A stretch of DNA of 64,000 nucleotides from Dipteris shenzhenensis (Eukaryota): NCBI GenBank assembly GCA_047967505.1, contig CM106538.1, one strand, 5' to 3'. The first letter of the stretch is position 1, and the number at the start of each line of letters is the position of its first letter. A program made the translations under genes and the position numbers. A model generated the notes under the pieces. That model worked only from the letters and a program-made list of their open reading frames with translations, was not told the origin of the DNA and ran no database searches. Of the stretch, positions 1,955 to 63,028 are shown piece after piece.

Positions 1955-3200
1955 TGTTGGAAAGGTCACCTCCCCATCTGTAAGCCCCCAAATGAGGAGA
2001 GCGTGGGGGAGGGAGACCTAGGGCAGGATGTGCCCAAAGAGAGAATACCTGGATGTGTGGATCTGGGACAGATCTGGAGCATTCATGGTTGGCGGGGTAT
2101 CCCGAGGTACACAAGCCTACATGGAGAGCTATTGAGCGAGGTTTGTGGCCAGGTACATGGCCTGCAACATGCTCTGGATATGGCGCAATGAAGGCAGGTG
2201 TGCAGCAGCAGGGTCGGCGGCCTGTGTAGATAGGCTGATTGGACTGGGTATAGCCAGCCAGACAGGCCTGGTTATGGGCTGGCCAGTGGAATGCCCCCTG
2301 CATAAGCAAATAAGGCAGTACCCTGCCCTTTATACAGGGCTAGCAGGCTGGTCGGCTGGCCAATTGAAGTCGGCCAGCACACAGCCCCAAAAGGGCAGCC
2401 CACAGCCCCATAAATGGGGAGCTGTGGGGTCGGTTGATGGACAGACAAAGTCGGCCAGGAAGCCCCTTCAAGTCGGTCAGTTTTGAGCCCCTTTGGGGCC
2501 TATAAAAGGAGCCCTTTGGCAGGGCATTCAACATCCAACAGTTCAGCAAAAGCAGGAGCAGACAGGAGCAGCCAGGAGCCACTCCCTTGGGCCTCACACT
2601 GGGGGTGAAGGAGAGTTGAAGGTGAGCTGCAGGCTGAGTTCCTAGAGGCTGGACCTTGGCTGCCTTCTAGGGCAGCAAGGTGTTGTGATCACATTCTCTG
2701 GAGCAGCCCTCTGACAGCAGATAGGAGCAGCAAGAAGGCAAGCCTTGGACCTGTATTTAGGAGGTGAAGGTGACCTTGAAGGAGCTGCAGACTGGGCTTG
2801 AGTGGCAGCCCACCTAGGCTGGTTTCCAGACAGCAAGGTGGAGAGGATCGTTCTGGACGGAAAGTCTACAGATGTTCGAGGTGGAGCACGTGGACTCAAG
2901 TCTAGAGATAGCCGGCAGATAGGAGAAGGACCTTGTGGTTAGATCAGAGGACCACACCATTGGTGGGACTCTGGATCTCTCTCTTTTGTATTGTGTCCAT
3001 AGTTTTGGACGGAAATATATGAGTTTTGGTGTCTTCTATATCTGGCTGGTTAATTGTCTATTGATGAGTCTGCACACCTATTTTATGCACATTAAGTAAA
3101 GAAGTTTGTGATTCCACATCCCACACGCACACTGTGTGAGCTCCTGGGCATTACTATAAGTCTTCCGCTGCGTGTACCCTTTGTTGGGCAATTTCTAAGA
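1955..3200 (+). repeat. 5' LTR (1246 bp)
   Basis: Starts TGTTGG, ends TTCTAAGA (degenerate ACA), followed by PBS; TATA-like CTATAAAAGG near 2500. Confidence 0.88.
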
Positions 3201-3765
3201 TGGTATCAGAGCCCAAGTAGGAGGCTCATAGGTGTGGGAGCCTGAAGGCAGGGACCTTGCTGAAGGACGACCCTGATTTAGAAGCTCTTGGGAATGGACT
3301 TCCACGACTGGAGGATTGTGCCCTTGCGAGAAGGAGGGTGACTCAGGTTCAGTCAGGTGCATTAAAAGTTCGCGGTCCAAGTTATCTTGAGATGTACTTT
3401 TGTTGCAGACCTTGCCAAAGGAAGGACGGGTTGAAACAGACCCTCAGAGCATGGTGCCTGGAAGACTCCAGGTTGTTCACTCATTATGAGAGGGACAACA
3501 GGAAGATTGTGGAGGCTGGGTTGCTCGAATTCGAAGGCAGGAATGTGACGGAAGGGGTGGTGCCAGGAGGTGCTACCAGAGATGGACTTGTGTACCAGGA
3601 TGGTGTGCGGAAGCGGAAGCGGACCTGGTGGAGCAGGAGCCACTGGATGAAAAGCCAGGAAAAGGTTTCGACATTGAAAAGTTCTAGAGGACTACGACCA
3701 AGGAGTTATTGGAGCATCTTCATCGACGTGTTGGCATTGGGCCTGGATGTGTCGGTGAGAGGGGG

Positions 3766-4913
3766 TGTTGGAAAGGTCACCTCCCCATCTGTAAGCCCGC
3801 AAATGAGGAGAGCGTGGGGGAGGGAGACCTAGGGCAGGATGTGCCCAAAGAGAGAATGCATGGATGTGTGGATCTGGGACAGATCTGGAGCATTCATGGC
3901 TGGCGGGGTATCCCGAGGTACACAAGCCTACATGGAGAGCTATTGAGCGAGGTTTGTGGGCAGGTACATGGCCTGCAACATGCTCTGGATATGGCGCAAT
4001 GAAGGCACGTGTGCAGCAGCAGGTGGTTATGGGCTGGCCAGTGGAATGCCCGCTGCATAAGCAAATAAGGCAGTACCCTGCCCTTTATACAGGGCTAGCA
4101 GGCTGGTCGGCTGGCCAATCAAAGTCGGCCAGCACACAGCCCCAAAAGGGCAGCCCACAGCCCCATAAATGGGGAGCTGTGGGGTCAGTTGATGGACAGA
4201 CAAAGTCGGCCAGGAACGGTCAGTTTTGAGCCCCTTTGGGGCCTATAAAAGGAGCCCTTTGGCAGGGCATTCAACATCCAACAGTTCAGCAAAAGCAGGA
4301 GCAGCCAGGACCCACTCACTTGGGCCTCACACTGGGGGTGAAGGAGAGTTGAAGGTGAGCTGCAGACTGAGTTTCTAGATGCTGGACCTTGTTTGTCTTC
4401 TAGGGCAGCAAGGTGTTGTGATCACATTCTCTGGAGCAGCCCTCTGACAGCAGACAGGAGCAGCAAGAAGGCAAGCCTTGGGCCTATACATAGGAGGTGA
4501 AGGTGACCCTGAAGGAGCTGCAAACTGGGCTTGAGTGGCAGCCCACCTAGGCTGGCTTCCAGACAGCGGATGGAAAGTCTATAGACGCTCGAGGTGGAGC
4601 ACGCGGACTCAAGTCTAGAGATAGCCGGCAGATAGGAGAAGGACCTTGTGGTTAGATCAGAGGACCACACCATTGGTGGGACTCTGGATCTATCTCTTTT
4701 GTATTGTGTCCATAGTTTTGGACGGAAATATATGAGTTTTGGTGTCTTCTATATCTGGCTGGTTAATTGTCTATTGATGAGTCTGCACACCTATTTTATG
4801 CACATTAAGTAAAGAAGTTTGTGATTCCACATCCCACACGCACACTGTGTGAGCTCCTGGGCATTACTATAAGTCTTCTGCTGTGCGTACCCTCTGTTGG
4901 GTCATTTCTAACA
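3766..4913 (+). repeat. 3' LTR (1148 bp)
   Basis: TGTTGG...TTCTAACA; collinear with the 5' LTR apart from several deletions. Confidence 0.88.
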
Positions 4914-8851: not shown

Positions 8852-9282
8852 TGTCACGATCTGTGACGTATTCCTTTCTCTATTTCTAGACTTATGGATG
8901 GTTTGATGAATGGACACTTGTGAAAGGGTATGCCCTTTCGACGGGACACTTGCCCTTTCGACGGGACACTTCCTAATGAGGCATAACCCTTCACAAGAGA
9001 CATTCTAATGAAGAGACATTCCTATTGTAATGTACCCTCTCATCAAGGGTCACACCCTTCACAAGGGGTACACACCTCTTCATGCACATACCCTTTGGAG
9101 TACACACCTTTTCATGTGTGACTCTTCACTCTTTATATAAGAGAGGCCCAATTGTATGGATGACAACAACATCCACCCTACAGATATTCAAGCAATACAA
9201 TTATTCCTTGTTCTCTGCTATCTCAGTCTCTTTTCTGTTCCTTAGCACATTTCTAAATATAGTAAATCTAGGATTTCTTACA
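8852..9282 (+). repeat. 5' LTR of Ty3 element
   Basis: Direct repeat of 15352-15782; about 5 substitutions counted by eye. Confidence 0.95.
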
Positions 9283-9964
9283 GTGGTATCAGAGCAAAAT
9301 TCGCTCCTGCCTGTAGGAAATGCCCCCCACCTTCTAGCGTTGATCTGATACATCTTTTCCGCTAGAAGGACATCCGTGCACATTGTGCATGGAAGAGATG
9401 GAGAGGATGAGGGTAAAATTTTTAAACGCCTACCTGGCCTAAAGTCATCCTGGCCTCTCCATCTCCTTCACATCACAAGTTGATGTGAATGGACACGACA
9501 AAAATCATGTCTTTTCAGGTGCTTGGGCTGTCCCAAAACCAAGGGACGCACCTTTTCCACCATGGGACACACCCTTTGGTGACGAGTCTCGACTCCTCAC
9601 TCATGGGACATACCCCATCGTGGACAGAAGGACTTACCTATTCATGCAGGGTCACACCCCTTTTAACAATAGGGACATATCCCTTCATGAACAGGTGCAC
9701 CTATTCCAAGGGTCACACCCCTTCGAATAGGCACACCTTCTAGGCCCCAAGTACCTACAAAAGGGTACCTAGAGGGGTAAAAAAGGGAAAAAAATAAACC
9801 CATCCCCTACCCCTAGGTTTACCCTAGCTACCTAGGGTTAACTAAACCCCCCATTTAATTTTTGGGGCAACTAACCCATTAGGCAGCCCAACGAAAAGTC
9901 GCCCCTTCTCCAACGAAAAACTGCTACTATCGGAATTTCTGGCAGCCTGTGCAGCACCTGCGTC

Positions 9965-10270
9965 AGCCCGTACGGATTTCCGTACCATCTGCGTCGGCCA
10001 GCCATCAGTCTGCCGTACAGCCTGCACAAGCCTAGCCGTACCTTCTGCGCAAGCCTGCCGTACCATCTGCGCCAGCCCGTACGGATTTCCGTACCATCTG
10101 CGTCAGCCGTACGGCGAGCCATCAGTCTGCCGTACAGATTTCCTTCCCTGCAGCCAGCCGTTGCGTCCATTCGTACACAGCCTGCGCACGCCCTGCAGCC
10201 TTGCCCCTGCCGTACAAACCTGTGCAATTTCCTGCAACCTGCCACAGCCTGCGCCATTCGGTACGACCAG
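9965..10270 (+). promoter_or_regulatory. CCGTAC/GTAC motif array in the Ty3 leader
   Basis: About 12 CGTAC/GTACG sites in about 300 bp, CpG-rich; function inferred. Confidence 0.5.
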
Positions 10271-15351: not shown

Positions 15352-15782
15352 TGTCACGATCTGTGACGTATTCCTTTCTCTATTTCTAGACTTATGGATG
15401 GTTTGATGAATGGACACTTGTGGAAGGGTATGCCCTTTCGACGGGACACTTGCCCTTTTGACGGGACACTTCCTAGTGAGGCATAACCCTTCACAAGAGA
15501 CATTCTAATGAAGAGACATTCCTATTGTAATGTACCCTCTCATCAAGGGTCACACCCTTCACAAGGGGTACACACCTCTTCATGCACATACCCTTTGGAG
15601 TACACACCTTTTCATATGTGACTCTTCACTCTCTATATAAGAGAGGCCCAATTGTATGGATGACAACAACATCCACCCTACAGATATTCAAGCAATACAA
15701 TTATTCCTTGTTCTCTGCTATCTCAGTCTCTTTTCTGTTCCTTAGCACATTTCTAAATATAGTAAATCTAGGATTTCTTACA
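15352..15782 (+). repeat. 3' LTR of Ty3 element
   Basis: Direct repeat of 8852-9282, followed by TSD CGCAG. Confidence 0.95.
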
Positions 15783-20099: not shown

Positions 20100-20608
20100 T
20101 ATTAAAGTCTTCGGAAGACCGATGGGTCTATGAGACTATCAAAAACCTGATACAACAATAAACTGGTAGAGTAGCGCTACTAATCGAGCGTCCACTCCCA
20201 TATAAAGCAAGAAATGCATATCACTGCATGACCAGATACAAAGAAAAGCAATCATGTACAGCTTCAATATCACTATGGTCTCTCAACTCCGCCGTCAAGG
20301 GTGAGGGAGCGATGTCATGAAATCTGATATAGAATGTTGCTGTCCCTTTGTGGCTATGGCTTTGTGCTGTCTCTGGCGGGCCCTAATCCTGCATCTGACT
20401 AGGGTGATAGTCACTCTGGTCGGTCGTGTACCCACCTTGAACATGGATGGGATGTCACCAAGTGTAATTTGAGTATCTCCCCTCTACTTCAGCTGTTGTG
20501 TCACTGGCTCAGGATCCCGGGCACACCTAGAGCCAGTACGGGGAGCCAGTACGGGGAGTATCCCTATCATCAGGCAGGAAGAAATCCGTGATTATGTGTT
20601 GAGGGGAA
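17120..20608 (-). mobile_element. Head-to-tail array of five 5'-truncated non-LTR (RTE-X-like) 3' ends separated by GA-type microsatellites
   Basis: Units start at 17168, 18251, 18857, 19297 and 20097, each with the same 3' terminal motif after a (GA)n, (GAA)n or (GAAA)n tract; C-terminal domain FRVSSHRLRIESGR..IPRE.RLC..C..EVE..H....C and LRTRSHQLQIETGGW...RICQLC...EEH...CP. Confidence 0.8.
18808..18856. repeat. (GA)n microsatellite; related tracts at 17120-17166, 18215-18250, 19276-19296 and 20043-20096
   Basis: Direct read. Confidence 0.95.
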
Positions 20609-21513
20609 TGCGACGGGAAATGCTCGCGGAACCTGCAAATCCTTGAAAAACACAGCAACACTCTTCGAAAATACGCACAAACTCTCAAAGCTCACAAACG
20701 GAAGAGACAGAATAAGCGTGTTGGGTACAATCTCCCCCCATAGGTGTGGTGCTCTCCTTCCACCTCCTATGTATTTATGTATATTTCCAAAAAAGCTTCC
20801 GAGCAAAAATCATACAAAAGCCCTTGTGCTTTTCTCCATACCCCCTTTTACAGAAAGCCCATCCACCTTCTAGAATAGCTGGCTTTTTCTAAAAATAAAG
20901 CTTTTTTTAACTTTAGTTTATACACTTAGCCAAGCTACTAATATTCCAAAATTCAAATATGTACATAAGCTTTTGTAATATAAAAAATTAGGCATAAGCC
21001 TTATTCATCCCCGCATCACTGGAGTTGCATCTACGCGCCCAAAATATGAAGGATCATGCGTGCCAGATGACATCGCCCGATCAATTACTTTTCCCCTGGT
21101 GGATTCACACGATCAATAGTAATGAAATATTTCAAGCATAAGATAACCTTGGAATTAATCACCACAATCAATCAACCTTTCAGTATTATAGCGACGCAAA
21201 ATCAATAAATCATGGATGAATGGTACACACATGTGACACATACCATCTCATGGTGCACCTGATGCTACACATGAATAAAATCGTACGGATGGTGCACACA
21301 TGCTACACATACTATCATCGTGTAAGTGGTGCACACAATGCTACACACTCATACAGCCGCCGCCGCAGTCGTATATCCAACCATGTAGAAGCACACATGC
21401 ATCACTACGGAACAGCGAGCACACATGTATCAGCTGTGCGACAAAAATGCTAAATCTCACTAAACTAAATACTGAAGGATTAAATTAATGAGATACTTCC
21501 AATTCTCGTAACA
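20609..21513 (-). repeat. 3' LTR (905 bp)
   Basis: Direct repeat of 27140-28013 with many substitutions and indels. Confidence 0.92.
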
Positions 21514-26386: not shown

Positions 26387-27139
26387 AGTTAAGTATGATG
26401 AAAGGAAATACACACAAACACAAGACTTATCTCAATTCGGTTTCCAAGCTTTGAAAGCGGCTATTTGTCGAATAGTATCTCTGTGGGCTCTCGAACTCAC
26501 ACGATTCCAACAAGTGAATCCACGTTGCAAGGTACAAAGTAAAGCTTGTGTCCGATAGAACTTGTAGATTGCCTCCTGCTCTTGTGAACACTTGCTTTTG
26601 AGATTCTCCTCTTTCAAAATCCGTTGGGTTGCTCCCTTGTTTGTACTTTTGCCTTGAAGGATATCTTTATGACTAGAAACTTCAAAGAATAGAGCAACAA
26701 AGTGACTTGATCTAGTGGATAGTCACCAATTGTTAAGGAGACTTGAGCTAGAACAGTACCGGGATGGGGGACCTCCCGGGAAGTCTTAAGAGCAATCTCC
26801 CAAGGCTTCCTCGCGCACAGCCAACGGTGCCTTCAGTGCCAGGTATGCCAAGGACTATGCCTTGGTCGCCGCCTTTGTCGTACACTTGGAGGAGCTAAGG
26901 CGCGGGTGTACGTTCATAGGCTTCGACTTGTCTACATACGACCGACTTCTTTTGCTGCGATATTTTTTTTTCGCTGCACGTTTTCTTGCCTGCGAGCCGT
27001 TCTGCGCTGTTCGCTTCTGCTGCTTCGAACTTCGTTGCACTCTTGTACGCGGTGTCCGCAATCTAATGCGTGCTATGGTTTCTTGTTCGAGGACGCGGGG
27101 GGTGTGTGCTATGAACGAGAAACATGGCTCTGATACCAC

Positions 27140-28013
27140 TGTGACGGGAAACGCTCGCGGAACCTACAAATCCTTGAAAAACACAGCAACAGTCTTCGAA
27201 AATATGCACGAACTCTCAAAGCTCACAAACGGAAGAAACAGAACAAGTGTGCTGGGTACAATCTCCCCCCATAGGTGTGGTGCTCTCCTTCCACCTTCTA
27301 TGTATTTATGTATATTTCCCAAAAAGCTTCCGAGCAAAAATCATACAAAAGCCCCTGTGCTTTCCTCCATACCCCCTTTTACAAAAAGCCCATCCACCTT
27401 CTAGAATAGCTGGCTTTTTCTAAAAATAAAGCTTTTTCTAACTTTAGTTTATACACTTAGCCAAGCCACTAATATTCTAAAATTCAAATATGTACATAAG
27501 CTTTTGTAATATAAAAAATTAGGCATAAGCCTTATTCATCCCCGCATCACTGGAGTTGCGCCCACGTGCCCAAAATATGGCGGATCATGCTTGCCAGGTG
27601 CCATCACCCGATCAATTACTTTTCCCTTGGATTCACATGATCAATAGTAATGAAATATTTCAAGCATAAGATAACCTTGGAATTAATCACCACAATCAAT
27701 CAACCTTTCAGTATTATAGCAACGTGAAATCAATAAATCACAGATGAATGGTGCACACATGCGACACATACCATCTCATGGTGCGCCTGATCCTACACAT
27801 GAATAAAATCGTACGGATGGTGCACACATGCTACACATACCGTCATCGCGTAAGTGGTGCACACAATGCTACACACTCATACAGCCGCCGCCGCAGCCGT
27901 ATATCCAACCATGTAGGAGCACACATGCATCAGCTGCGAGACAAAAATGTTGGATATCATCAAACTAAATACTGAAGGATTAAATTAATGGGATAATTTC
28001 AATTCTCGTACCA
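27140..28013 (-). repeat. 5' LTR (874 bp)
   Basis: TGTGACGG...CGTACCA, adjacent to the PBS and to TSD GGGAA. Confidence 0.92.
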
Positions 28014-28018
28014 GGGAA

Positions 28019-29450
28019 TCTAGAGATTCACCACTCCTATGTCTCTGTGATTGCAAGAGGTGCTTACGATCCTCAATGATATAGGCAGCCAGGCATCTCA
28101 AATCTGGGAATTAGAGAAAACGGGACAGTGATCCGGAGCTGTCTCTGAACAAGCAATAGAAACGCCCCCTAATCTCATAGTAGACTGAACATCTGAATAT
28201 GAAATGCTCCTTCGACTCAACCTCTTGCATGCTGCATAGGGTGCAAATGCGTCTCTCCCTGGGAATACCCTCTGCCCGACCACTCTCAATGCGGAGTCTG
28301 TGCAAAGAGACACGAAACTCCCAATAGAGATCCTCAATGAGTGGGGTAAATGAATTTGTGTGTATCCCGGTGGGTCGATAAAACCCTCCTCTGGGATATG
28401 AAGGCAGTGGTCTCTGTAGAAGTTGAGCTTCACAGGGAGCTCAGTTGGCTCCAACCAGGTATGGAAAGTGTGCAGCTGTAGAAGATCCTCATGTATTACC
28501 TGGTTGAACTCATGAGTCTGAACCGAGGAAAAAGGGGCATCTATACTGTACTGGAAAGGAGGAAGTCTATCCATATGAAGCCCCAGTCGCTCGAACCACC
28601 ACAATGTGTGCATACCAACATCTCACATCCCCTGCCTCTGATAGTGCTATGGAGGAAGATAGGGCCAACCACGGTAATCTGCTGTGACCAGATGTGCGAT
28701 CCTCGTATGCTCGGACATGATACAAATAGGTAATGACCTAAAACACAGCATCAAGCTGTAGCAGTAAAGATCCAAACTCTGCATGAATGATCTTGTGAGG
28801 GACTAACGGCTTACCCTGGATCATCCGTGATAACATAAGAACCTGTAGCTGCTCTACACGAGGCAACTCAGCGTCAGACAAATCAAGCCCCCAACATGGC
28901 CCTTCATACATCACTGCTAGGCGTACCAAGGAGTCAAAGAGCAAGCGTCTGGTCTGAGGGTCCTGAAAATGAGAGCGAAATCAGAGCCTCTCCAACTTGG
29001 CCAGTGACACATACCCTTGACTCAAATGAGCCTGTATCGCCGGTCCTAAATGATCTTGTGAGGGACTAACGGCTTACCCTGGATCATCTGTGATAACATA
29101 AGAACCTGTAGCTGCTCTACACGAGGCAACTCAGCGTCAGACAAATCAAGCCCCCAACATGGCCCTTCATACATCACTGCTAGGCGTACCAAGGAGTCAA
29201 AGAGCAAGCGTCTGGTCTGAGGGTCCTGAAAATGAGAGCGAAATCACAGCCTCTCCAACTTGGCCAGTGACACATACCCTTGACTCAAATGAGCCTGTAT
29301 CGCCGGTCTCATTGTGAAAATAGGTCCACGAAAGACAACCCCCAAGTAAGTGTAGGAGGAGACAACCTCAATGGTTGACTTGTGAAAAGTGAACTGCTCC
29401 TATGCATCATAGCCCGAGAGGTGTTGAAGATCATGACCTTAGTGTAACCA
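28019..29450 (-). mobile_element. Continuation of the RTE-X-like copy split by the Ty3 element
   Basis: HRLRIESGRAEGIPRERRICTLC...HFIFRC and upstream LFDSLVR...YEGPCWG; homologous to 17700-18215. Confidence 0.8.
28786..29308. repeat. Near-perfect 260 bp tandem duplication (28786-29045 and 29049-29308)
   Basis: Direct read; 3 nt filler CTA between the copies. Confidence 0.92.
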
Positions 29451-30890: not shown

Positions 30891-31379
30891 TGTTGGGGTA
30901 AAGGCACATTGCCACCCTTTTGTTAAAGTTATGACACCTATGACTGTCTTAAGACAGTCATAGGGTGAAAGCCTAATCCTAATAAAACCTATGAGTTTGT
31001 GGTGTGGCTCAACACTTTTTGACACACCCACACATTTTGTGTCTCTCTCTCTCTCTGTCTCCTTAGTTCCACTCTATCTCCCTTTCCCTCACAACTGGTA
31101 TCAGAGCACCCTCTACCTCTCCCCCTCTCTCCGGTCCACCCCTCTCTCTACCTCTCCCCTCGGGCCTCGTGCCCTCAGCAGCTAGCAGCGCGAGCAGATC
31201 GAGGCAGCGCAGCAGCAGCTAGGCCTGGGCGCAGCAGCGGCACAGCAGCAGCAGGCTAGGGCGCCGCCGCGCGCAGCAGGTGCGCGACCCGCCACGTGCA
31301 GCAGGCGCACACGCAGCAGCAGCTAGCTGCTGCACCGCACAGCACCGGCGGCAGTAGCCTACCAGGCGCGCGCAGCGCG

Positions 31380-31600
31380 CAGTACCGGCTGCGTGCAGCC
31401 CCTCACAACCCGTCGATCGGACAGGTACGGCCATCTGTACCGATTGTACGGACACCGTACATGCAACCGTACCGTACGGACGCCGCCGTACGGACGCACG
31501 GACGCTGCGCAGGAGGTTCATGTCAAATTTTTTTTGGGGATTTCGTGCCCTTGCAAGTACAGGGTACAGCAAGTACCCTGCGCAGGTACAGGAGGTACAA
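31380..31600 (+). promoter_or_regulatory. GTAC/CCGTAC motif array in the Copia A leader
   Basis: At least 13 GTAC in about 220 bp, including CCGTACCGTACGG; function inferred. Confidence 0.5.
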
Positions 31601-36864: not shown

Positions 36865-37173
36865 GACCATTCTTATTTTATGGTCTTGTATACAGTAACT
36901 GTATATTGCTGTAATTTTTTATTCTTTTCTCCCCTTTAGGCACATTGGCCTTTAGGTGGGAGGTTGTTGGGGTAAAGGCACATTGCCACCCTTTTGTTAA
37001 AGTTATGACACCTATGACTGTCTTAAGACAGTCATAGGGTGAAAGCCTAATCCTAATAAAACCTATGAGTTTGTGGTGTGGCTCAACACTTTTTGACACA
37101 CCCACACATTTTGTGTGTCTCTCTCTCTGTCTCCTTAGTTCCACTCTATCTCCCTTTCTCCCTTTCCCTCACA

Positions 37174-41930: not shown

Positions 41931-42307
41931 GTGTTCAGATGTAGTTTTTCTGGTGAAACATGAGTTTCAGCTAGTTGTTGCCCTTAACGATAACCAAGGC
42001 AGATGGTGAAGGAAATGGAGAGAGTGAGAGCTAGAGAGAGTGAGAGAGTCGAAAGCTTGGAAGCTGTAGTTGCAAAATAGAGTGTAAAAGAGTACAACAC
42101 AAAGTGAGTAGGATAAGGTTTTGTCCTAGTGACAAAACCTTAGTAGTCACTAACCATAGTTAGTGAACTAACTGCAGTTAGGGGGAAAAACCTCTAAATT
42201 GAGGGAAAAGTGCCCCTAACTAACTTATTATATTACATTGGTCACTGCTGAATTATATCTATAATTCCAGCACCCCCCTGCAGTGCCAATGTCATGTACA
42301 AGGCTGA

Positions 42308-45300: not shown

Positions 45301-46652
45301 TATAAGACATCAGAAAGTCTGAAAATTGAGCCATCAATTGCAGTGAGCTCAACTTCTCCTGTGCCACGTACTGAATATGAGGAGTTGTTGGCACAAGTGA
45401 CTTTCTTACCAACAGGAGGTGGATGCAAGGAAGTAAAGAGACACTTCCTCGAAGTGATGTGCTTGGATGCACCGCTGTCAAAATACCATGTGTTCAGTGT
45501 TTCATCAACACTGAAAGCAGATGCATTTGAAGGAGAGTCAAAACTGCAAGTAAAAAATGCATATGTATCATCACTGCAAGAAGCTGTACTATCCCGAGCA
45601 TCTGGAACAGCCAACCTAGAATCAGAAATGCAAGATAAAAAGGCATAATCTTGACCAACAAAGTTGGCTGCAGCATCCCCACTGTCAGATGCACAAGGGG
45701 CTGAATCTGAAACAGCCATTCCTGAGCTGTTTTTCTTTTCCTTTGCAATCCTTTTCCTGCATTCTGCTATGTGATGACCTGGCTTTTTGCAGTAGTGACA
45801 AAAACCCTTCTTTTTGGGCTTGCTTGCATCACTTTTAGCCTTTTGTGAAGGCTGTCCTAACCCACTGGAAGGCTGATTTGCTGCTGTTTTTGCCTGTCCT
45901 TTTGTTTTTGATTTGAATTTTGAGAGCATGGCTTGTTCACCTGCACGTGAAGCCAAATTTTTCCTGGTCTGCTCTTCCTGAAGCAGAAGTCCTATCAACT
46001 CATGAAAAGAAAGAGGATTTGCACCCCCCCTCAATGATAAATTCAGCGAAGTGTGAAAGCTGAGATAAGACTCAGGAAGAGAGTTCAGAGTGGTTGTAAT
46101 CATCTCTGAATCAGGAATAATTTCATCTATGTTTAACAACTGCTCTCTGAGATCCTGTAGCTTAGTGAGGTGGACTGACATGGAGTCACCCTCCTCCATA
46201 TGTGTATTGCTCAACTCTCTTTTTAAAAAAGATACCCTGGCATCATTCCGTGTTGCATACATGCTTTCCAAAATATCCCACGCTGCCCTGGAGGTCTTAC
46301 ACGACCGGATATGCGGAATGATTGATCTTTTCACTGAAAGAGAGATGCATGACAAGGCTAAGGCATCCCGTGAATCCCATCTCTTTTGCTCAGGAGTATT
46401 GACTGTAGCTGCACCAACAACTTGTCCTGCAGCTGCACCTTGTGCACGACCTCTTCCACCTCCTTGCTGAGGAGGGGTAGCAGGTGCAATATCTGCTGGT
46501 CGGATTTCATCCCCATTGACATAATCCCATAAATTGCGAGAAATCAGAATATTACGTACCATGAAACTCCAGAGGGAGTAGTTGGTACCATCCAATTTGT
46601 CTTCCTGTGAAAGACCACCGAACTGGAACTCATTCTGATTTTGATGGGCCAT
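42308..46652 (-). CDS. pol: Copia gag-pol polyprotein with a single frameshift at 43758-43764
   Basis: Start MAHQNQ...KLDGTNY, CHYCKKPGHHIAEC, WYFDSGAS, WHARYGH, LRTDRGGEY, QLDIKTAFLNG, YVDDLL, SDSDWAGD, ADIFTK; two ORFs overlap at an A7 run. Confidence 0.9.
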
Positions 46653-47159
46653 ATCTGAGAAAGAGATTGAAGCAGATACAAAGCTGAATTCCCTTACTGG
46701 GAATAAAATGCACAACTCCCAAAAAACACACCCAAGCACGGGCTGTATATGCAACTTAGATTTCTGCACTTGAGCTGTCAGAAATCTGTTCAAGCATAAA
46801 ACACTCTCCAAAATCTGCCAAAAGTGTTCCAAACACTCCAAGAAAGGCAGTATGTACTGAATACTCCAAAAAATGCTCTCCCAACACAAAAGCCCCAATT
46901 TGTGGCTAGAAATTGCAGCCAGAAAGGGGTCAAAATGCTAAAAACCCCAAATCTGCAATTTAAAACAAAAGCCCCAAATTTCAGACTATATTTCCAATTT
47001 TTCTCCAGATGTAGCTCCAAAATTGCACAATGATTGCAATGGCTGCAATATGCAAAAATGCCCCAAATGTACTCCAAAACAACTGCACCAAACTGTAGTT
47101 TTCTGCAAGAGAAGCCTGTCAAAGAACACCCGAGGTTGACAACAACCGGTCTATATCTG

Positions 47160-47560
47160 CAAGTACAGATGGTAAGTCCAAACTGTACGGTCAATACTGA
47201 TTGGACGTACTGTACGGAAAGTACGGAACAGGCCGAACAGTACGGGAAGCAAGAGCTGTACGGTCAACTTGTACGGCTTCCTGCGCAGGTACGGCGAGCA
47301 GATACGGGAGCTGCACGACAAACAGGTACGGATATTGTACGGCGCGCAGGTACGGAAGCAGAGCGCTGTACGGCGGCAGATGACGAAACGTACGGAGCTG
47401 GTACGGCGATGTACGGCTGCAGATGGCGAAACGTACAGAGCTGGTACGGCGATGTACGGCGGCAGATGGCGACACTTGCGTCAGGATTCCGTACAGTCGT
47501 ACGGACTGTACGGACAGATTGGAGCGGGCTGGAGCTGGAGGTAAGGCGCTGGTACGAGAA
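47160..47560 (-). promoter_or_regulatory. CCGTAC motif array in the Copia C leader
   Basis: About 23 GTAC in 400 bp, about 18 as GTACGG (CCGTAC on the element sense strand), directly downstream of the PBS; function inferred. Confidence 0.55.
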
Positions 47561-49418
47561 GGAGCAGAGGGCTCAAAGGCCTAGAACCTGCTCTGATACC
47601 AAATGAAGGAAATGGAGAGAGTGAGAGCTAGAGAGAGTGAGAGAGTCGAAAGCTTGGAAGCTGTAGTTGCAAAATAGAGTGTAAAAGAGTACAACACAAA
47701 GTGAGTAGGATAAGGTTTTGTCCTAGTGACAAAACCTTAGTAGTCACTAACCATAGTTAGTGAACTAACTGCAGTTAGGGGGAAAAACCTCTAAATTGAG
47801 GGAAAAGTGCCCCTAACTAACTTATTATATTACATTGGTCACTGCTGAATTATATCTATAATTCCAACAGATGGCTGATTATACAGTCTCATTCAGGGAG
47901 AAATTTTTGGATTTGCCTCGGTTTATGCACCTTAATTTTCTCGCAGAGTAGAGGTTTAATTTGGATTGATATGCAAGCCTATCCTTGGAGACAGCATGGC
48001 TTCATTTGTGGGGATTTTAAACTCAACAGGGTGATAATACTTCTTTTTGGGTCCCACTGCAAGAACCTGATGGGAAAACTACCATATAATCAGAGTCTTC
48101 AAGACCTAAGTGCCTGGAGAACAGGGTCAGGATCAAGATACCACTATGAGTCCATGCCCCACTCCATGTAACCTGCAATCCTAATAGGTTGGAAGGCAAC
48201 CTCCAAAAGAATATCATTTGAAGATTTGAGAAGTCTGCCTCCCGACTGAACATCAAAGACAAGGGTCTCCTCATGTGCATCCCGCAAGGCAATGATCTGT
48301 AAGGGAACACCCGTCCCCGAGAAATATCCCAACCAAGTGGACTCTGTGATCGGCAAGTCATCTATATCTATCCACTCTGCTGGTATGGCTGCCTCTATCT
48401 GTTGCATCCTGACTGCAATCCCTCTGAGGTGGCCAACTAATAAGAGTCTCTGATCCTCTGGAAGCTATCTAAAAGCCTTTTAGGCACCTATAATGGAAGC
48501 AAGTCCTCTCTCCCATTTAGACCACTGCATATAATGTGACACTCCTAGTGACTGCCTGTCTATTTCTTTGCGAGAGGAGGGTGTAACTCTTTGAAGAGCA
48601 TCTCTGAAGCTGCCCCAAGCTTTCTGAATGGAAGCCATGAGAGGGGAAGGGGGAGATCTAAGATGGGCTGAAGTAAAAATCCATCTTGAGCTGTCCATCC
48701 AATCTCCCCCGTGAGAAGGTGTACAAGACTGAATGCTACGTAGGAAAAAATATTTCCAAGGCTCGCCTAGGCATCAATCCTCTCACTACGAATTTGCAGA
48801 GCAAGGCCATACACTACAAATTCAGATAAGTAATATTGAGACCTTCCCCTGTGGGGAGAATGAGGGTCTCCCAAGCCACCCTAGCTACAACATCTGAGGT
48901 ACCTTCTAACCCATTCCAAAGAAAGCTCCTGACAGGTCTCATGAGCTGAGTGCAAAACAAATCCAAGGATGTCTTTAACGAGGTGAGTGTCTGCGGTGTG
49001 GCATCCAAAAAACAGCCGTATCACCTACCAACTCACTATCCAAAAGCTCATCCTCCTGCCTCAATGGAAGTCTCAGCCCTATAATATCAGCTTGAGCTCT
49101 GAGGTAATAGCTCATAGCTTCGGCCACAAATAAAAAGAGAAAGGGGGCTGTTGGGGTAAAGGCACATTGCCAACCCTTCATTAAAAGATAGGACACCTAT
49201 GACTGTCTTAAGACAGTCATAGGGCAAACCTAATCCTAATAAAACATAAGTGAGTTTGTGGTGTGGCTCACATTGGACTTCACACCCGCACTAGAGTGTC
49301 TCACTCTCACTCTCTTGCTCTCTTCCACTCCACTCTTCTTCCCCCCTATCAACTGGTATCAGAGCCTCCTTTTCCCTTGCCTCCTCTCCCTAGCTTCCTC
49401 TCCCTAGCCTAACCTTTT

Positions 49419-50020
49419 CCGTACGGACGTACGGACCGTACCGTACGACCGTACTTCGTCCGTATAGTCGTACGAACGGACTGCGACAGCGCAGCAGCAC
49501 AGTGCGCAGGCGGCGCAGCAGTGCAGAGTGTGGTAGCGGGCGTGGTCACGGGCGTGGTCACAGGCGTGGTCGCAGATCGTGGGCTGTACAGCAGCTACAT
49601 AGCTGCAGGGCGGAGCTGCATCAAGCAGCTATACAGCTGCCTGCAGGTGCATTTCGCGCGCAGGGCGGCGCACTTCGTACACAGGGCAGCAGCAGATCTG
49701 CGGGCAGCAAGGCGGCGCATCGCGCAGGTGCAGGCCTCTTTCGTGCGCCGTACATCTGTACGGCCGTACAGTTGTACGGTGGCCGTACGTCCGTACTGCC
49801 GTACTGCCATACCTACAGGGAGCTGTTTTTTCGTTTTTTGTGCAGCAGGGAGGTACATTTTTCGGTTTTTTCGGGAGCTGTGTCAGGGACTTTCGACAGG
49901 AAGACATCGTTTTTTCTGGATCTGCGTCAGAGGAGTACATTTCTCCTTGGATTTGTACCCTGCACAGGTACAGCAGGTACATCTGTACCCTGCACAGGTA
50001 CACAGGTACTAAAGTACAGC
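49419..50020 (+). promoter_or_regulatory. CCGTAC/GTAC motif clusters in the Copia B leader
   Basis: 6 GTAC in 49419-49475, 7 in 49747-49806 and more to 50020; function inferred. Confidence 0.55.
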
Positions 50021-55320: not shown

Positions 55321-56436
55321 GACCATTCTTACTTTATGGTCTTGTATACAGTAACTGTATATTGCTGTAATTTTTTATTCTTTTCTCCCCTTTAGGCACA
55401 TTGGCCTTTAGGTGGGAGGTTGTTGGGGTAAAGGCACATTGCCAACCCTTCATTAAAAGATAGGACACCTATGACTGTCTTAAGACAGTCATAGGGCAAA
55501 CCTAATCCTAATAAAACATAAGTGAGTTTGTGGTGTGGCTCACATTGGACTTCACACCCGCACTAGAGTGTCTCACTCTCACTCTCTTGCTCTCTTCCAC
55601 TCCACTCTTCTTCCCCCCTATCAGGGGCTAAAGGGCATCCCTGACGGACCTGACACCCCTCTGCTGATCCATGCATCTGTGAATCCAAAGCGAGCGATGG
55701 TACCCTCTAGAAAACCCCAGGCTACTCTGTCATAAGCTTTCTCAAAGTCCAGGAATATAATGGCAAGCCTATGGCCATTATGCATGGCCCATTCAGAAGC
55801 CTCCCAAAATGAGAAAATACTATCAAAGACGCTCCTGCCATGCACAAATCCCGTCTGCATATCATGTATAAGATCTGGAAGAGAGGGCTGCAACCGTAGG
55901 CTGATTGCTTTTGCTAGGATTTTGTACAAAGTGCCCAACAAAGTGATCGGTCTCCACTGAGACACTAAATTTCTATAACCCCCTTGTGGGATAAGATGAA
56001 TGAGGCCCTTAGTAAGTGAGTTTGGCATCTCACCTGAGTCTTAAAAGCCCTGCAGGGCTGAGGTAATGTGATCCCCAATATGATTCTAAAATGAAATAAA
56101 GAAAGAGGGTGTAAAGCCCATCTGAACCAGGGCACTTGCCCTTGTGAAGGGCAGAGAGAGCAGTCCTAAACTCTATGTGGGTGAATGGTGCATCAAGTGA
56201 GACTATCATATCTCCAGTCACCAACATAGGTAAGTGTTGCCAAATAACACCTCGAGCATCATCTCTGGCCGGAGTGTCAGGATCTGCTGTAAGAAGAGAG
56301 GCATAAAAATATGTGGCTACCTGCAAGACGGTACCTGGATGTGTCTATAAAACTCCGTCTGAGTCAACAAGTTGTGAAATGCTCTCCCTACTATGACTTG
56401 AACCAAGAGTAGAGAAGAACTACTTGTTGACCCTAC

Positions 56437-58808: not shown

Positions 58809-59010
58809 TAGAGTTTTTGGTGACGCGACTTTCTTTCTGCAGGTACTTGCAACAATCGTTTTATGATTGTTTGCAAACAGGGTCTCTAGATCAGGATGTA
58901 TATTTGTCATATATTGACATCTTTGCTTGATGTATTTTGAGCATATCCTGCTTTGGGATGCTTATCTTGTAGTATAAAAGCAACAATATTTTCACCAAAA
59001 AAGAAGGAGA
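58804..59010 (+). mobile_element. Second, 5'-truncated L1 3' end
   Basis: Homologous to 58527-58738 (CATAGAGT.TTTGGTGA...GCAATCG...TGATTGT.TGCAAAC); ends TTTCACCAAAAAA. Confidence 0.75.
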
Positions 59011-59039
59011 AACTGTGTGTGTGTGTGAGAGAGAGTCAT

Positions 59040-62000
59040 AAATCCGTACTGTTTGTACTTTTTATTAGAAATCCATACCGTCTGTACTTTCTGTCAAAAA
59101 TCTGTACAGTCAGAAATCCGTATAGTCAGAATCCCTACAGTCCGCATCGTCAGAATCCGTACTATCCGTACTTTCTGCTGTTGTTGTACTTGCTGTCCTT
59201 TCCTCTTTGTAAAGCCTTGTTGCTTCCAAGCCTTCCATTTTGTTCCTTGTTTCTCCTTTTCCTTGACTCAAATGGCAGATTATTCCTCTGAGAAAACCTT
59301 TCATAATGACAAGTTGGTTTCCAACAAAAACAAAAACATGTGATGGATTCAGATGATTCCCTTCATGACTATGCTGAGGCTTAGCTTGTTTATGAGGTTA
59401 TGCATGAAGGGTTTGAAGACACCCGCAAGGGCTGGAAAGATCCACTTCCCACCACTGGCATTATGGTGGAAGTGGATGATATCTTTGATCCAGTTAAGGA
59501 GTATGCAAAGCATGCCATTATAATTTTCTTCCATTCAATGCCTTGTTCAAGGGGAAATCTTTGAATTTGCATCAGTTTATGCCCCCCAATCTTCTCATGA
59601 TAGAGCTTTGATCTGGGCTGCCATGCATAGCTTTCCATGGCGACAACATGCCTTCATTTATGGTGACTTTAATAATGCCCCTCAATTGAGTGACAACACC
59701 TCAGGCCACACTCATATGTTGGCTTCTGAAACACAGGCATGGTCTGATTTTTTGCTTCAGTTGCGCCTAGTTGATCTTTGGAAGGAATTACAGCCCATGC
59801 TTCCAGGCTATAACTTTCAACATAATGCTTGATCTTCTTATCTGTTACAAATAACACAACTATCTATTCCTATTGCAGATCACGGGAGCAGCACCATGGA
59901 TATCCTCCCAGCCAACCTTGCTAAAGCTAACGAGTAGACAGAGAATTCGGATATCAAAACAAAGGTGAAAATCCACAGCCCTACAATAAAGTCCATGGAA
60001 ATGCTCTCCCACTTACTCAGTGGTATTTCCAAGGGCTGTAAAAGTCCGGGTGGCTTCACCCGCTCGGCCTTGCTTACCTGACACGAGAAACACCGTGTCA
60101 CATATTCATGAATATGCTTTTTCATCTTTGGCCAAAAGAAATCTCGCTTCACGAGATCATATGTCTTCTCGACTCCTGGATGTCCCGCACATGGGCTATC
60201 ATGGCACTGTCGAATGACTCTCTGCCTGAGATTATTCTGACTAGGTACTACAACCTTGCCATTTCTTTTCAGCATACCATCCCTTATGGTATATCTTGCA
60301 TAAGTTTGGCCTTTTCTGGATGCGAGGGTATCCTTTTCATTTTCCCCGGGTTTTAACACATGAGCTTTAGGCCATAAGCTCTGGACAAACTCGTCCACTT
60401 TTTGAGTTTCTCTAATCTCGGTCATTAGAGCACTCTCTAATACTGTGAAACAGCTTGTTTTATGGTGTTAAAACTTTCTTGTTGCTTCTGTCCCCATATA
60501 AAAGGTACTTTATCTGAGGTCAGATTAGTCAATGGCGATACTATTTCGGAATATCCTTTGATATGCCTTCTATAAAACTGGACAAACCCCAAGAATGATC
60601 GCAGTGCGGTCAGACTAGCGCGGTCAGACTCTGAGGGATTGGCCAAGTTAGTATCACAGCCACTTTCTTTGGATCCATTTCTACCCCCTGTGGAGTAATT
60701 ATGAATCCTAAATATTCAAGCCTAACCATACACAGTATAGTTTTCTTTTTATTTACATAAAGACTGGCTTTCCTCAAAGTACTGAACACTACTCTTAAGT
60801 GTTCACAATGCTCAGTAATACTTTTACTGAATATCAGGATATCGTCAATAAAATGTACTACGAACTTTCCGATATACGGACGTAGTAAATCATTCATAAG
60901 CATGACGAATGTAGCCGGAGCATTGGTAAGTCCGAAGGGCATTACCAAAAACTCATAATGACCAAACCTGCTTCTGAAAGCGGTTTTATGCACATCCTCG
61001 GCTCTAATCCGGATCTGATGGTAGCCACACTTAAGATCTATCTTGCTGAAAATCACGGCTCCATGTAATGCATCTAGCAAATCATCAATCCGAGCCATCG
61101 GATACCTGTGCTTAACAGTGATATTATTCAATGCTCTGTAATCTATACAGAGGCGAAACGTATCATCCTTTTTCTTCTTTAATATCACTGGCGAAGCAAA
61201 AGGTGAGAAACTTGGTTGAATCTGCCCCAACTTGAGGTATTCTTCCAGTTGTCTACGCACCTCCGCCTCTTCAGTAAAACTCATTCTATAGGGAGGTCTA
61301 TTTACAGGTTCTGCCCCCGGGATCAATTCAATCTTATGCTGAACTTTCCGCTCTGGAGGTAACCCATAAGGTAGTTCATCCCTAAAACATTCAGAGAACT
61401 CCTCTGTTATAAGATTAGCCAGCTTGGCCATCTCACCACTTTGCGTAACATCAGTGCTAGCCGAAGAATCATCAACCGGCTCTACCGATGCTGTGCAAAG
61501 GAATAAAAATTCTTCCTAAGCTTTTCAGATTTCCATCACGGAAACCAACGGTCCCTGAGGTATATCTTTCTCACGTCGTAAGACATAAAGCACATCATTC
61601 ATCTTGATTTGATATATCAATGGCTGGATTCTTCCTATAATGCCACGCCATACCCAGGGCTATATCTGCATGAGCAAGCTTGGTCATTTCAAAATCAAGC
61701 TTCTCAGCATAGTCCTGAATACGAAGCTCCAACTGGGTAACCCTTTGGTCCCATACTTCAGTTGAACTTCCATCTGCCATCCTGACTGTATACGCATAGT
61801 CAGATGGACTTGTCTTTAATTTCAGCCTCTTCACGAGCTTGGAGTTAATCACATTGTGAGTTGACACCGAGTCAAACAACACAATGACATCATGATTGGC
61901 CACTTGTCCTTTCATTTTAATTAACTCCGTATCATTAAAGGCTGTATGCCCCGTTGCTGCGGGCTTAGATAGGATGTTATCAGGTGCACTCGTCACTAGC

Positions 62001-63028
62001 TTAGCAACAGACACACATAACAGTACGGGATGACCACCGCTCGAAAACCGTCCGTCGTCGTCGTGCAGTCCCCTCCAATTCGTAGCCTTGGGCTCTGAGA
62101 CCAAATGTTACAAATAACACAACTATCTATTCCTACTGCAGATCACGGGAGCAGCACCATGGATATCCTCCCAGCCAACCTTGCTAAAGCTAACGAGTAG
62201 ATAGAGAATTCCGATATCAAAACATACGTGAAAATCCTTCTCTTCTCTCTCTAGCCTCAACAAGTCCCATCTCCCTAGATAGATCTAGATGCCACATGTC
62301 ATCCATATAGGGCCTTCCTAATGCAACATTTCACCCCTCTCTTGGGATGCATTAAATCCTTTGCCTCTAGGCATAATCTTTGCATTAGGCCCTTAGCCTT
62401 AGATCTACCTAGTCTGGTGCTATCAACCCTCACCTAGGACCTTGACATTAATTCCCTCCCGATCTTTTACATGAAGCGCAAACAAATAATTTACAAAGAT
62501 AGATCCTTTAAGGGAAATGTCGACTGATTCTTTTGAGGTCATGCTACCTCGGCTAGAGCGTAACATTATTGGGCATGCTTGGACAGATGGTATCAGGTTA
62601 ATCCACAGCATTGTGATGCCTTTACTTGTCAAATTTGGGTTGATCATGCTTTCACACATTTAGATCATGCTCCTCTTTAGTTGAGGCTCTTTAGTTGAGG
62701 CTTTCCTTACATGAATTCCTCACTTACAGATTGCCTTGCCGAAGGCTTTTGCTGATTAATAATAGTTATCTGGAGCATGTTGACTTTAAAGCCGGTCTCT
62801 GATGCTATTCAGCGTCTCTCTCGTGAGATACACATTGGTTTGGATTATGCATGGTAGGCTTTTGTTGCTATCTCTGCATGACGCTTGTCATGAAAATGAC
62901 TTAGATGTATCGTCTTTAGAGGTGTTTTCCCACTGCTTTTGATTTTTCAGAAAAGTTTGTTTTCCAGGCTATTCTCATTCGAAAAAGTTTTTCTTATTAT
63001 AAATACAGTGGTTTCACCAAAAAAAAAA
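59040..63028 (+). mobile_element. Internally deleted + strand L1 (59040-59842 and 62566-63028) split by a Ty3 element
   Basis: SVYAP, FIYGDFNN, and HNA*SSY|WACLDRWY across the insertion; ends ATAAA...TTTCACCAAAAAAAAAA. Confidence 0.75.
59843..62565 (-). mobile_element. Heavily deleted Ty3/Gypsy element (2.7 kb)
   Basis: 5' LTR 62106-62565 (TGTTAC...GTAACA); 3' LTR remnant 59843 to about 59974; degenerate PBS at 62092-62103; TSD TTATC/TTATT; PR (VLFDSVSTHN), RT ([29 protein letters not shown]), integrase zinc finger. Confidence 0.92.

Follow-up and report, generated by a model that had tools for sequence, protein, structure and literature searches.

CCGTAC arrays in the leaders of independent LTR-retrotransposon lineages as candidate platforms for a host SBP/SPL-type factor

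The window analyzed here is a 64,000-nucleotide stretch of contig CM106538.1 from Dipteris shenzhenensis (assembly GCA_047967505.1), in which several long terminal repeat (LTR) retrotransposons carry dense arrays of the motif CCGTAC in the leader between the primer-binding site (PBS) and gag. At least three independent lineages share these arrays: a Ty3 chromovirus, the sister elements Copia A and Copia B, and a third element, Copia C. The arrays are real and lie far beyond chance. Judged from the DNA sequence, each array may be a platform of binding sites, carried in the leader, for a DNA-binding protein of the host, for which an SBP/SPL factor is the strongest candidate; this reading is favored tentatively and at somewhat less than even confidence.

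The window is a nest of retroelements, and self-comparison together with a 12-nt tRNA-iMet PBS identifies five complete LTR elements. The Ty3 chromovirus (Ty3_1) lies on the plus strand between LTRs at 8852-9282 and 15352-15782 (98.8% identical), has its PBS at 9284-9295, and encodes a Ty3 gag, an integrase, and a chromodomain according to Pfam. Copia A (LTRs 30891-31086 and 36965-37158, 98.5% identical; PBS 31096-31107) and Copia B (LTRs 49143-49351 and 55414-55623, 99.0% identical; PBS 49354-49365) are also on the plus strand and are 90.8% identical across 5.5 kb internally. Copia C lies on the minus strand with a 5' LTR at 47604-47866 and a 3' LTR at 42007-42269, both 263 bp long and 100% identical, and its minus-strand PBS (47590-47601), a complement of the tRNA-iMet 3' end, sits directly inside the 5' LTR. 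All three Copia elements contain gag, protease, integrase, and RVT_2 domains by Pfam. An earlier sequence-only reading of this DNA called Copia C unrelated to the others, but its polyprotein is 34% identical to that of Copia B over 847 aa, making it a distinct and distant Copia lineage instead. The fifth element, Ty3_2, is on the minus strand with 796-bp LTRs at 20609-21404 and 27140-27932 (94.2% identical) and a PBS at 27127.

The four arrays all fall within element sequence that is both transcribed and reverse-transcribed. The Copia C leader array (47160-47560, minus strand) contains 23 GTAC sites and 18 sense-strand CCGTAC copies, with one further CCGTAC on the plus strand, while the Ty3_1 array (9965-10270, plus strand) contains 12 GTAC sites, 10 sense-strand CCGTAC copies, and two occurrences of the inverted repeat GTACGG-ATTT-CCGTAC. 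The Copia A arrays (31380-31600, plus strand) consist of a CCGTAC/GTACGG cluster at 31382-31488 with 8 GTAC sites and a CAGGTACAG-type cluster at 31557-31595 with 5. Copia B (49419-50020, plus strand) has GTAC clusters at 49421-49470, 49750-49853, and 49935-50014, for 24 sites in total. These counts bear out the earlier figures of about 12 sites in the Ty3 element, at least 13 in Copia A (13 counted), and about 23 GTAC and 18 sense CCGTAC in Copia C, as well as the array reported in Copia B. The arrays are 220-600 bp in size and hold 12-24 motif copies each. They had been described as lying downstream of the PBS, which holds for all four, but the distance to the first GTAC ranges from about 35 nt in Copia C and 53 nt in Copia B to 275 nt in Copia A and about 670 nt in Ty3_1, so the Ty3 array is not directly behind its PBS. 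No CCGTAC is present in the LTRs of the four array-bearing elements.

Counted on both strands, the window contains 62 copies of CCGTAC, where 100 dinucleotide-preserving shuffles of the window give an expectation of 6.40 (standard deviation 2.84, maximum 13) and none reaches the observed number. Five blocks contain 56 of the 62 copies: 9968-10215 in Ty3_1 (13 copies), 31425-31493 in Copia A (8), 47185-47513 in Copia C (19), 49419-49804 in Copia B (13), and 59044-59171 in a block near 59 kb that is discussed below (3). An unbiased scan for local clustering over all 6-mers ranks CCGTAC first, with 19 copies in 400 bp, and CAGCAG second with 12. The GTAC core is not enriched across the window as a whole (270 copies against 250 for a uniform 4-mer); it is instead concentrated in the arrays, which contain 79 copies in 1686 bp (46.9/kb), compared with 191 in the remaining 62,314 bp (3.07/kb). 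All eight clusters of at least four GTAC sites in the window lie within the arrays named by the sequence-only reading. The enrichment also stands leader by leader: observed and expected GTAC counts are 17 and 4.4 in Ty3_1, 16 and 2.8 in Copia A, 26 and 3.8 in Copia B, and 25 and 3.1 in Copia C, and in each of the four none of 1000 dinucleotide shuffles that keep the CpG count reaches the observed value.

The conserved unit of the arrays is the six-base word itself. When the GTAC sites of the Ty3_1 and Copia C arrays are aligned, the CCGTAC positions carry 1.2-2 bits of information and the flanks about 0-0.7 bits. In Copia C, C occupies position -2 in 22 and position -1 in 19 of 23 sites, and in Ty3_1 it occupies each of these positions in 11 of 12. 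Information restricted to CCGTAC in this way is what a protein-binding site would show; a conserved block of sequence would look different. The sense strand of the arrays holds 44 CCGTAC copies where 0.1 would be expected from the rest of the window, and CCGTAC is the sole strongly enriched 6-mer common to all lineages when arrays are compared with the remaining DNA. The next independent common word is the E-box-like CATCTG (10 copies against 1.03 expected), which occurs in three lineages and often adjoins a GTAC site. This second word could be a site for a second factor or an RNA word.

The spacers between the motifs behave differently from the motifs. Array alignments were compared with a null in which motifs were fixed and spacers shuffled (200 shuffles, 10 pairwise tests), and only the related pair Copia A and Copia B exceeds it (0/200). 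The pair Ty3_1 and Copia C gives a borderline value (7/200) that does not reach significance across 10 tests, and none of the other eight pairs stands out against the same null. The earlier statement that sequence between motifs cannot be aligned between families is thus upheld, and the absence of alignment past the null across lineages indicates that the arrays do not all descend from a single segment captured recently. The sisters Copia A and Copia B themselves have largely unalignable leaders in which GTAC clusters are kept in both. The two share a homologous CAGGTACAG sub-array that is expanded in Copia B, and Copia B has an extra CCGTACGG cluster directly after its PBS.

Such rapid turnover also fits a functionless origin, namely a hypervariable, slippage-prone leader in which CCGTAC units expand by chance tandem duplication and in which CpG richness stems from constant regeneration as opposed to protection. 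Recent tandem duplication has indeed built parts of the arrays, from 43-bp units (x 2.6) in Copia C, 22-bp units (x 3) in Ty3_1, and units of 8-16 bp in Copia B, and the leaders carry other simple arrays as well, including CAGCAG, CT-rich, and TTTGGRG types. The array near 59 kb, the sole one outside a datable element, is decaying by CpG loss, which indicates that the host genome is not conserving that array. Chance expansion nevertheless leaves unexplained why the same 6-mer recurs in three to four lineages otherwise without common sequence, and why the six motif positions alone are conserved among 9-22 diverged contexts per array; no other 6-mer in the window behaves likewise. An explanation without function is considered improbable.

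The array unit CCGTAC is identical to the published word of the SBP element. Passages of PMC6508781 give the SBP-domain element as 5'-CCGTAC(A/G)-3', and passages of PMC10796333 give its core as GTAC with a longer consensus, TNCGTACAA. The arrays contain 36 of the window's 38 CCGTAC[AG] sites. Among named proteins, the Copia C polyprotein has its closest homologues in ferns (Adiantum), at about 60% identity, which points to a land-plant host, probably a fern, that should encode SBP/SPL factors; the nearest Atlas clusters are Streptophyta.

In the favored reading, the clustered sites of each array would serve one host sequence-specific DNA-binding protein, likeliest an SBP-domain protein of the SPL type. 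Because the platform lies between the PBS and gag, in the transcribed leader, it is copied at every retrotransposition. There it would work as a downstream enhancer, as a protected CpG island, or as both, and bound protein would activate or protect the element and couple its transcription to the activity of the factor in particular tissues or conditions. Short tandem duplication would create the arrays and turn them over, and selection would hold the 6-bp word as the spacers drift.

A platform of DNA sites may instead be read by a factor outside the SBP family, such as a bHLH-type protein that prefers CCGTAC, a protein of insulators or boundaries, or a factor that promotes or counters silencing in particular lineages. 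Everything in the sequence that speaks for an array of protein sites holds equally for such a protein, and the long SBP consensus TNCGTACAA fits hardly any array site. The E-box-like CATCTG is about tenfold enriched in three lineages, and the gypsy precedent described below is an insulator, not an enhancer. A modeling paper (PMC13234004) lists bHLH28 as preferring CCGTAC and notes SBP and bHLH motifs occurring together. This alternative must account for the 36 array sites that spell the exact SBP element CCGTAC(A/G), and the literature passages surveyed yielded no further plant factor family with a GTAC core. Convergence on a site that purely recruits silencing is also not expected. A non-SBP reader of the arrays is rated as rather unlikely.

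Several observations weigh against the SBP/SPL platform as the explanation of the arrays. The long consensus TNCGTACAA fits 1 of 79 array sites and 2 sites in the whole window, and the position following the motif favors A only weakly (15 sites with A, 11 with C, 10 with G, and 8 with T). The preference assigned to bHLH28 means that SBP proteins are not the sole candidates for CCGTAC. The raw motif counts are inflated by tandem duplication, yet once recent duplicates are merged, 9, 13, 22, and 19 distinct flank contexts remain in Ty3_1, Copia A, Copia B, and Copia C, respectively. The distances between neighboring motifs show a broad 10-14 bp signal and no sharp helical period, making any periodicity non-specific. 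Enhancers of LTR elements usually reside in U3 and not in the leader. The leaders of Ty3_2 and of a further element with its PBS at 3201 contain no CCGTAC, and the sample is one 64-kb window with three to four independent lineages. The claim that transposable element lineages convergently built SPL-binding platforms is sustained as to independent lineages and a common motif equal to the published SBP element, and it is weakened by the poor fit to TNCGTACAA and by the loss of its proposed L1 example.

Motif orientation bears on whether the arrays are read as double-stranded DNA or as RNA. Sites in Ty3_1 are strongly oriented, with 7 CC-only and 0 GG-only, as are those in Copia C at 18 to 1, and Copia A and Copia B are mixed. 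This orientation follows the C-richness of the spacers: C makes up 0.38-0.41 and G 0.20-0.22 in Ty3_1 and Copia C, and the two bases are balanced in Copia A and Copia B. An asymmetric unit whose orientation follows spacer composition fits the orientation-free recognition of double-stranded DNA.

An element that acts at the RNA level would use the CCGUAC words of the leader to bind Gag/nucleocapsid or a host RNA-binding protein, or to pair with one another, for packaging, dimerization, export, or translation. The arrays follow the PBS and are thus part of the genomic RNA, and the motif is strongly sense-biased in Ty3_1 and Copia C, a bias that spacer composition accounts for with no RNA reading and that Copia A and Copia B, with both orientations, do not share. 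The Copia C leader of 937 nt contains 1 ATG where 12 are expected, and Copia B contains none from its PBS to 50221, so these leaders are near AUG-free (over about 800-850 nt) and look like working 5' untranslated regions. RNA folds are somewhat more stable than those of shuffled sequences (z -2.79 and -2.63, 100 shuffles each, with relatives too few for covariation), and GUACGG-loop-CCGUAC hairpins are present twice in Ty3_1 and also in Copia C; a z near -2.7 is expected of any sequence full of a self-complementary core. The common word CATCTG includes UCUG, which is a nucleocapsid-binding word in a murine retrovirus. Pfam places the Gag proteins of Ty3 and of Copia in separate families, which makes a common packaging word unlikely unless a host factor reads the motif. 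The palindromic extension CGTACG, proposed in the sequence-only reading as an RNA dimerization or packaging signal, reaches 12 copies where independent flanks would give 12.5, and with an asymmetric conserved unit that proposal is disfavored. A gathering-threshold scan of the window matched no Rfam family, and a tRNA scan of the window returned nothing. An RNA-level role is on balance unlikely.

The arrays are islands of CpG within CpG-depleted elements. Observed/expected CpG is 1.01 in the Ty3_1 array, 1.19 in Copia A, 1.06 in Copia B, and 1.39 in Copia C, whereas elsewhere in the same elements it is 0.65, 0.29, 0.28, and 0.23, respectively, and in the window 0.45. The claim that arrays keep CpGs in a CpG-poor background is thereby borne out, and 66 of the 144 array CpGs lie inside CGTAC or GTACG. 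Copia C, the youngest element with its identical LTRs, already combines a CpG-depleted body with a CpG-island leader, which makes this contrast a property of the lineage and not of age. The Copia LTRs (196-263 bp) contain 0 CpGs in Copia A, 1 in Copia B, and 1 in Copia C, so these promoter-bearing repeats look purged of CpG beside leader arrays with a ratio above 1.

A more specific form of the SBP/SPL platform holds that, in a fern-like genome, Ty3 and Copia lineages unrelated to each other each assembled a CpG-island module with 12-24 SBP/SPL sites in the transcribed leader, independently, and stripped their short LTRs of CpG. Such modules would couple transcription to the SPL phase-change/reproductive program or to copper status, and their dense occupancy would keep promoter-proximal DNA unmethylated. 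This composite model is doubtful as it stands. Arrays occur in the four short-LTR elements (196-431 bp) and in neither of the two long-LTR elements, an association that is anecdotal at this sample size; the GTAC count of the Ty3_2 leader is in mild excess (8 against 2.9, reached by 7 of 1000 shuffles).

Arrays of host-factor sites aboard retroelements are already known in kind, and CCGTAC leader arrays would be a new form of them. The closest precedent in layout is the gypsy insulator of Drosophila, described in passages of PMC2374998 as 340 bp of 5' untranslated sequence in which short variable spacers separate 12 Su(Hw) sites. The present arrays resemble it in lying after the PBS and before gag, in their size of 220-600 bp, in holding at least ten motif copies each, and in their variable spacers. 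The likeness is one of sequence layout: kingdom, motif, and protein differ, the spacers are GC/CpG-rich here and AT-rich in gypsy, and the motif here recurs in several unrelated lineages. SBP/SPL elements of plant promoters, including copper-response elements, share the identical 6-7 bp word and its clustering, but they occur in single or few copies upstream of host genes, compared with 12-24 copies in mobile-element leaders here, and the poor fit to the long consensus TNCGTACAA is a further point of difference.

Other plant transposons offer partial parallels. ONSEN carries a few heat-shock elements in its LTR (U3), where these host-factor sites set the timing of transcription; the parallel is that host-factor sites, putative in the present case, are aboard a mobile element, and the difference is that the LTRs here are 196-431 bp long, with hardly any CpG in those of the Copia elements, and the sites make up an extended array in the leader. 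In Arabidopsis, the VANC system of VANDAL21 likewise involves short motifs in tandem arrays within non-coding transposon parts, and these are tied to loss of DNA methylation; the binding protein there is transposon-encoded and family-specific. The motif here is common to unrelated families, unlike that of VANDAL21, which points to a host protein. The untranslated regions of plant LTR retrotransposons contain hypervariable tandem repeats of family-specific sequence that are a source of satellites; the arrays are similar as fast-evolving short tandem repeats between LTR and coding region, and they differ in that one 6-mer is common across families and is the sole conserved part. Full-text literature (supplements outside the scope) provided no description of GTAC or CCGTAC arrays in retrotransposon leaders or of transposon-carried SBP sites.

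If the composite model holds, the arrays would parallel, in plants, the way animal retroelements hijack germline factors, and would constitute a new class of regulatory array carried in leaders. Binding of SPL-type factors would reveal how retrotransposons of plants confine their activity to cell lineages that are inherited, and it would make leader CCGTAC arrays a sequence marker for such elements in the very large, poorly studied genomes of ferns. The arrays would then also illustrate, in nature, how a regulatory module can evolve convergently and how a CpG island can be kept inside CpG-depleted mobile DNA. Should the arrays act at the RNA level instead, they would imply a common host RNA-binding factor for unrelated retroelements, which would be equally new.

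The block near 59 kb is a degenerate AATCCGTAC-type array at 59035-59190 that is assigned to no strand and contains 7 GTAC sites, 3 CCGTAC copies, and the decay variants CCATAC, CTGTAC, and CCGTAT. The sequence-only reading took the array (59043-59172) to open a plus-strand L1, and this attribution is not supported. Plus-strand open reading frames (ORFs) at 58941-59832 have no Pfam match, and the downstream segment at 59880-62107 is a minus-strand Ty3 protease/reverse transcriptase/integrase region. The sole L1-like piece is a minus-strand reverse transcriptase fragment at 55621-56040, which corresponds to residues 503-625 of human L1 ORF2p (E 1e-8) and abuts the 3' LTR of Copia B. Because the fragment ends at that LTR, an older long interspersed element was apparently the insertion site of Copia B. 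This fragment is also the only exception among 24 ORFs around 47.9-49.2 kb and 55.6-59.8 kb, the other 23 of which have no Pfam match. Between it and the 59-kb array nothing recognizable is present, and two ORFs there have no meaningful sequence match in the PDB. The host element of the 59-kb array is thus unclassified.

Three public sequencing runs have small shares (0.17, 0.12, and 0.06), with no RNA run among those listed, and their contigs cover the gag-proximal leader at 46400-47060 and the LTR at 47573-47878. One contig is about 86% identical to Copia C over the LTR and PBS, with an alignment that ends at 47486; its 30-letter unaligned end opens with TACGG and still contains two GTACGG and another GTACG, all oriented as in Copia C, which counts in favor of the platform reading (n=1). 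No contig at 80% likeness or more covers 47063-47470, a gap that is not counted as evidence since contigs break at repeats. Two copies of the 43-bp repeat within the Copia C array differ by 5 mismatches, 1 of which falls in motif columns (24 of 67 columns), too few for statistical power. Protein-based scans found no relatives in metagenome and viral contigs, and a pattern of PBS, 50-80 nt, and then two CCGTAC had 0 matches in metagenome and viral contig collections.

A coding role for the arrays was considered and rejected, since three of the four contain no ATG and no long ORF is annotated, though stop codons are also rare. All four arrays are nearly stop-free in the three sense frames (0-3 per frame), a likely side effect of every TA being followed by C. 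The leaders contain other repeats as well. The distal Copia C leader (46653-47159, minus strand) has a CpG ratio of 0.15 and a single ATG and is a second kind of array, with the T/G-rich repeated words TTTGGAG (TTTGGRG-type) and TTTGGGGC. Simple arrays rich in CAGCAG and GCAGCGCAG lie between the PBS and the GTAC clusters at 31176-31280 in Copia A and at 49471-49749 in Copia B.

The window contains further repeats. A long LTR-like unit occurs twice within 1955-4911, about 1.75 kb apart and 92-98% identical, and the iMet PBS at 3201 follows its first copy; the element so defined has a very short internal region and no GTAC array. At 28786-29308, a 263-bp unit is tandemly duplicated at 99% identity. 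A 132-bp direct repeat (59843-59974 and 62106-62237, 96% identical) stands on either side of the minus-strand Ty3 protease/reverse transcriptase/integrase fragment, which suggests that this element was rearranged or lost a part. A small tandem of GAGCCAGTACGGG (x 2.2) at 20530-20558, immediately outside the LTR of Ty3_2, may be the remnant of another array.

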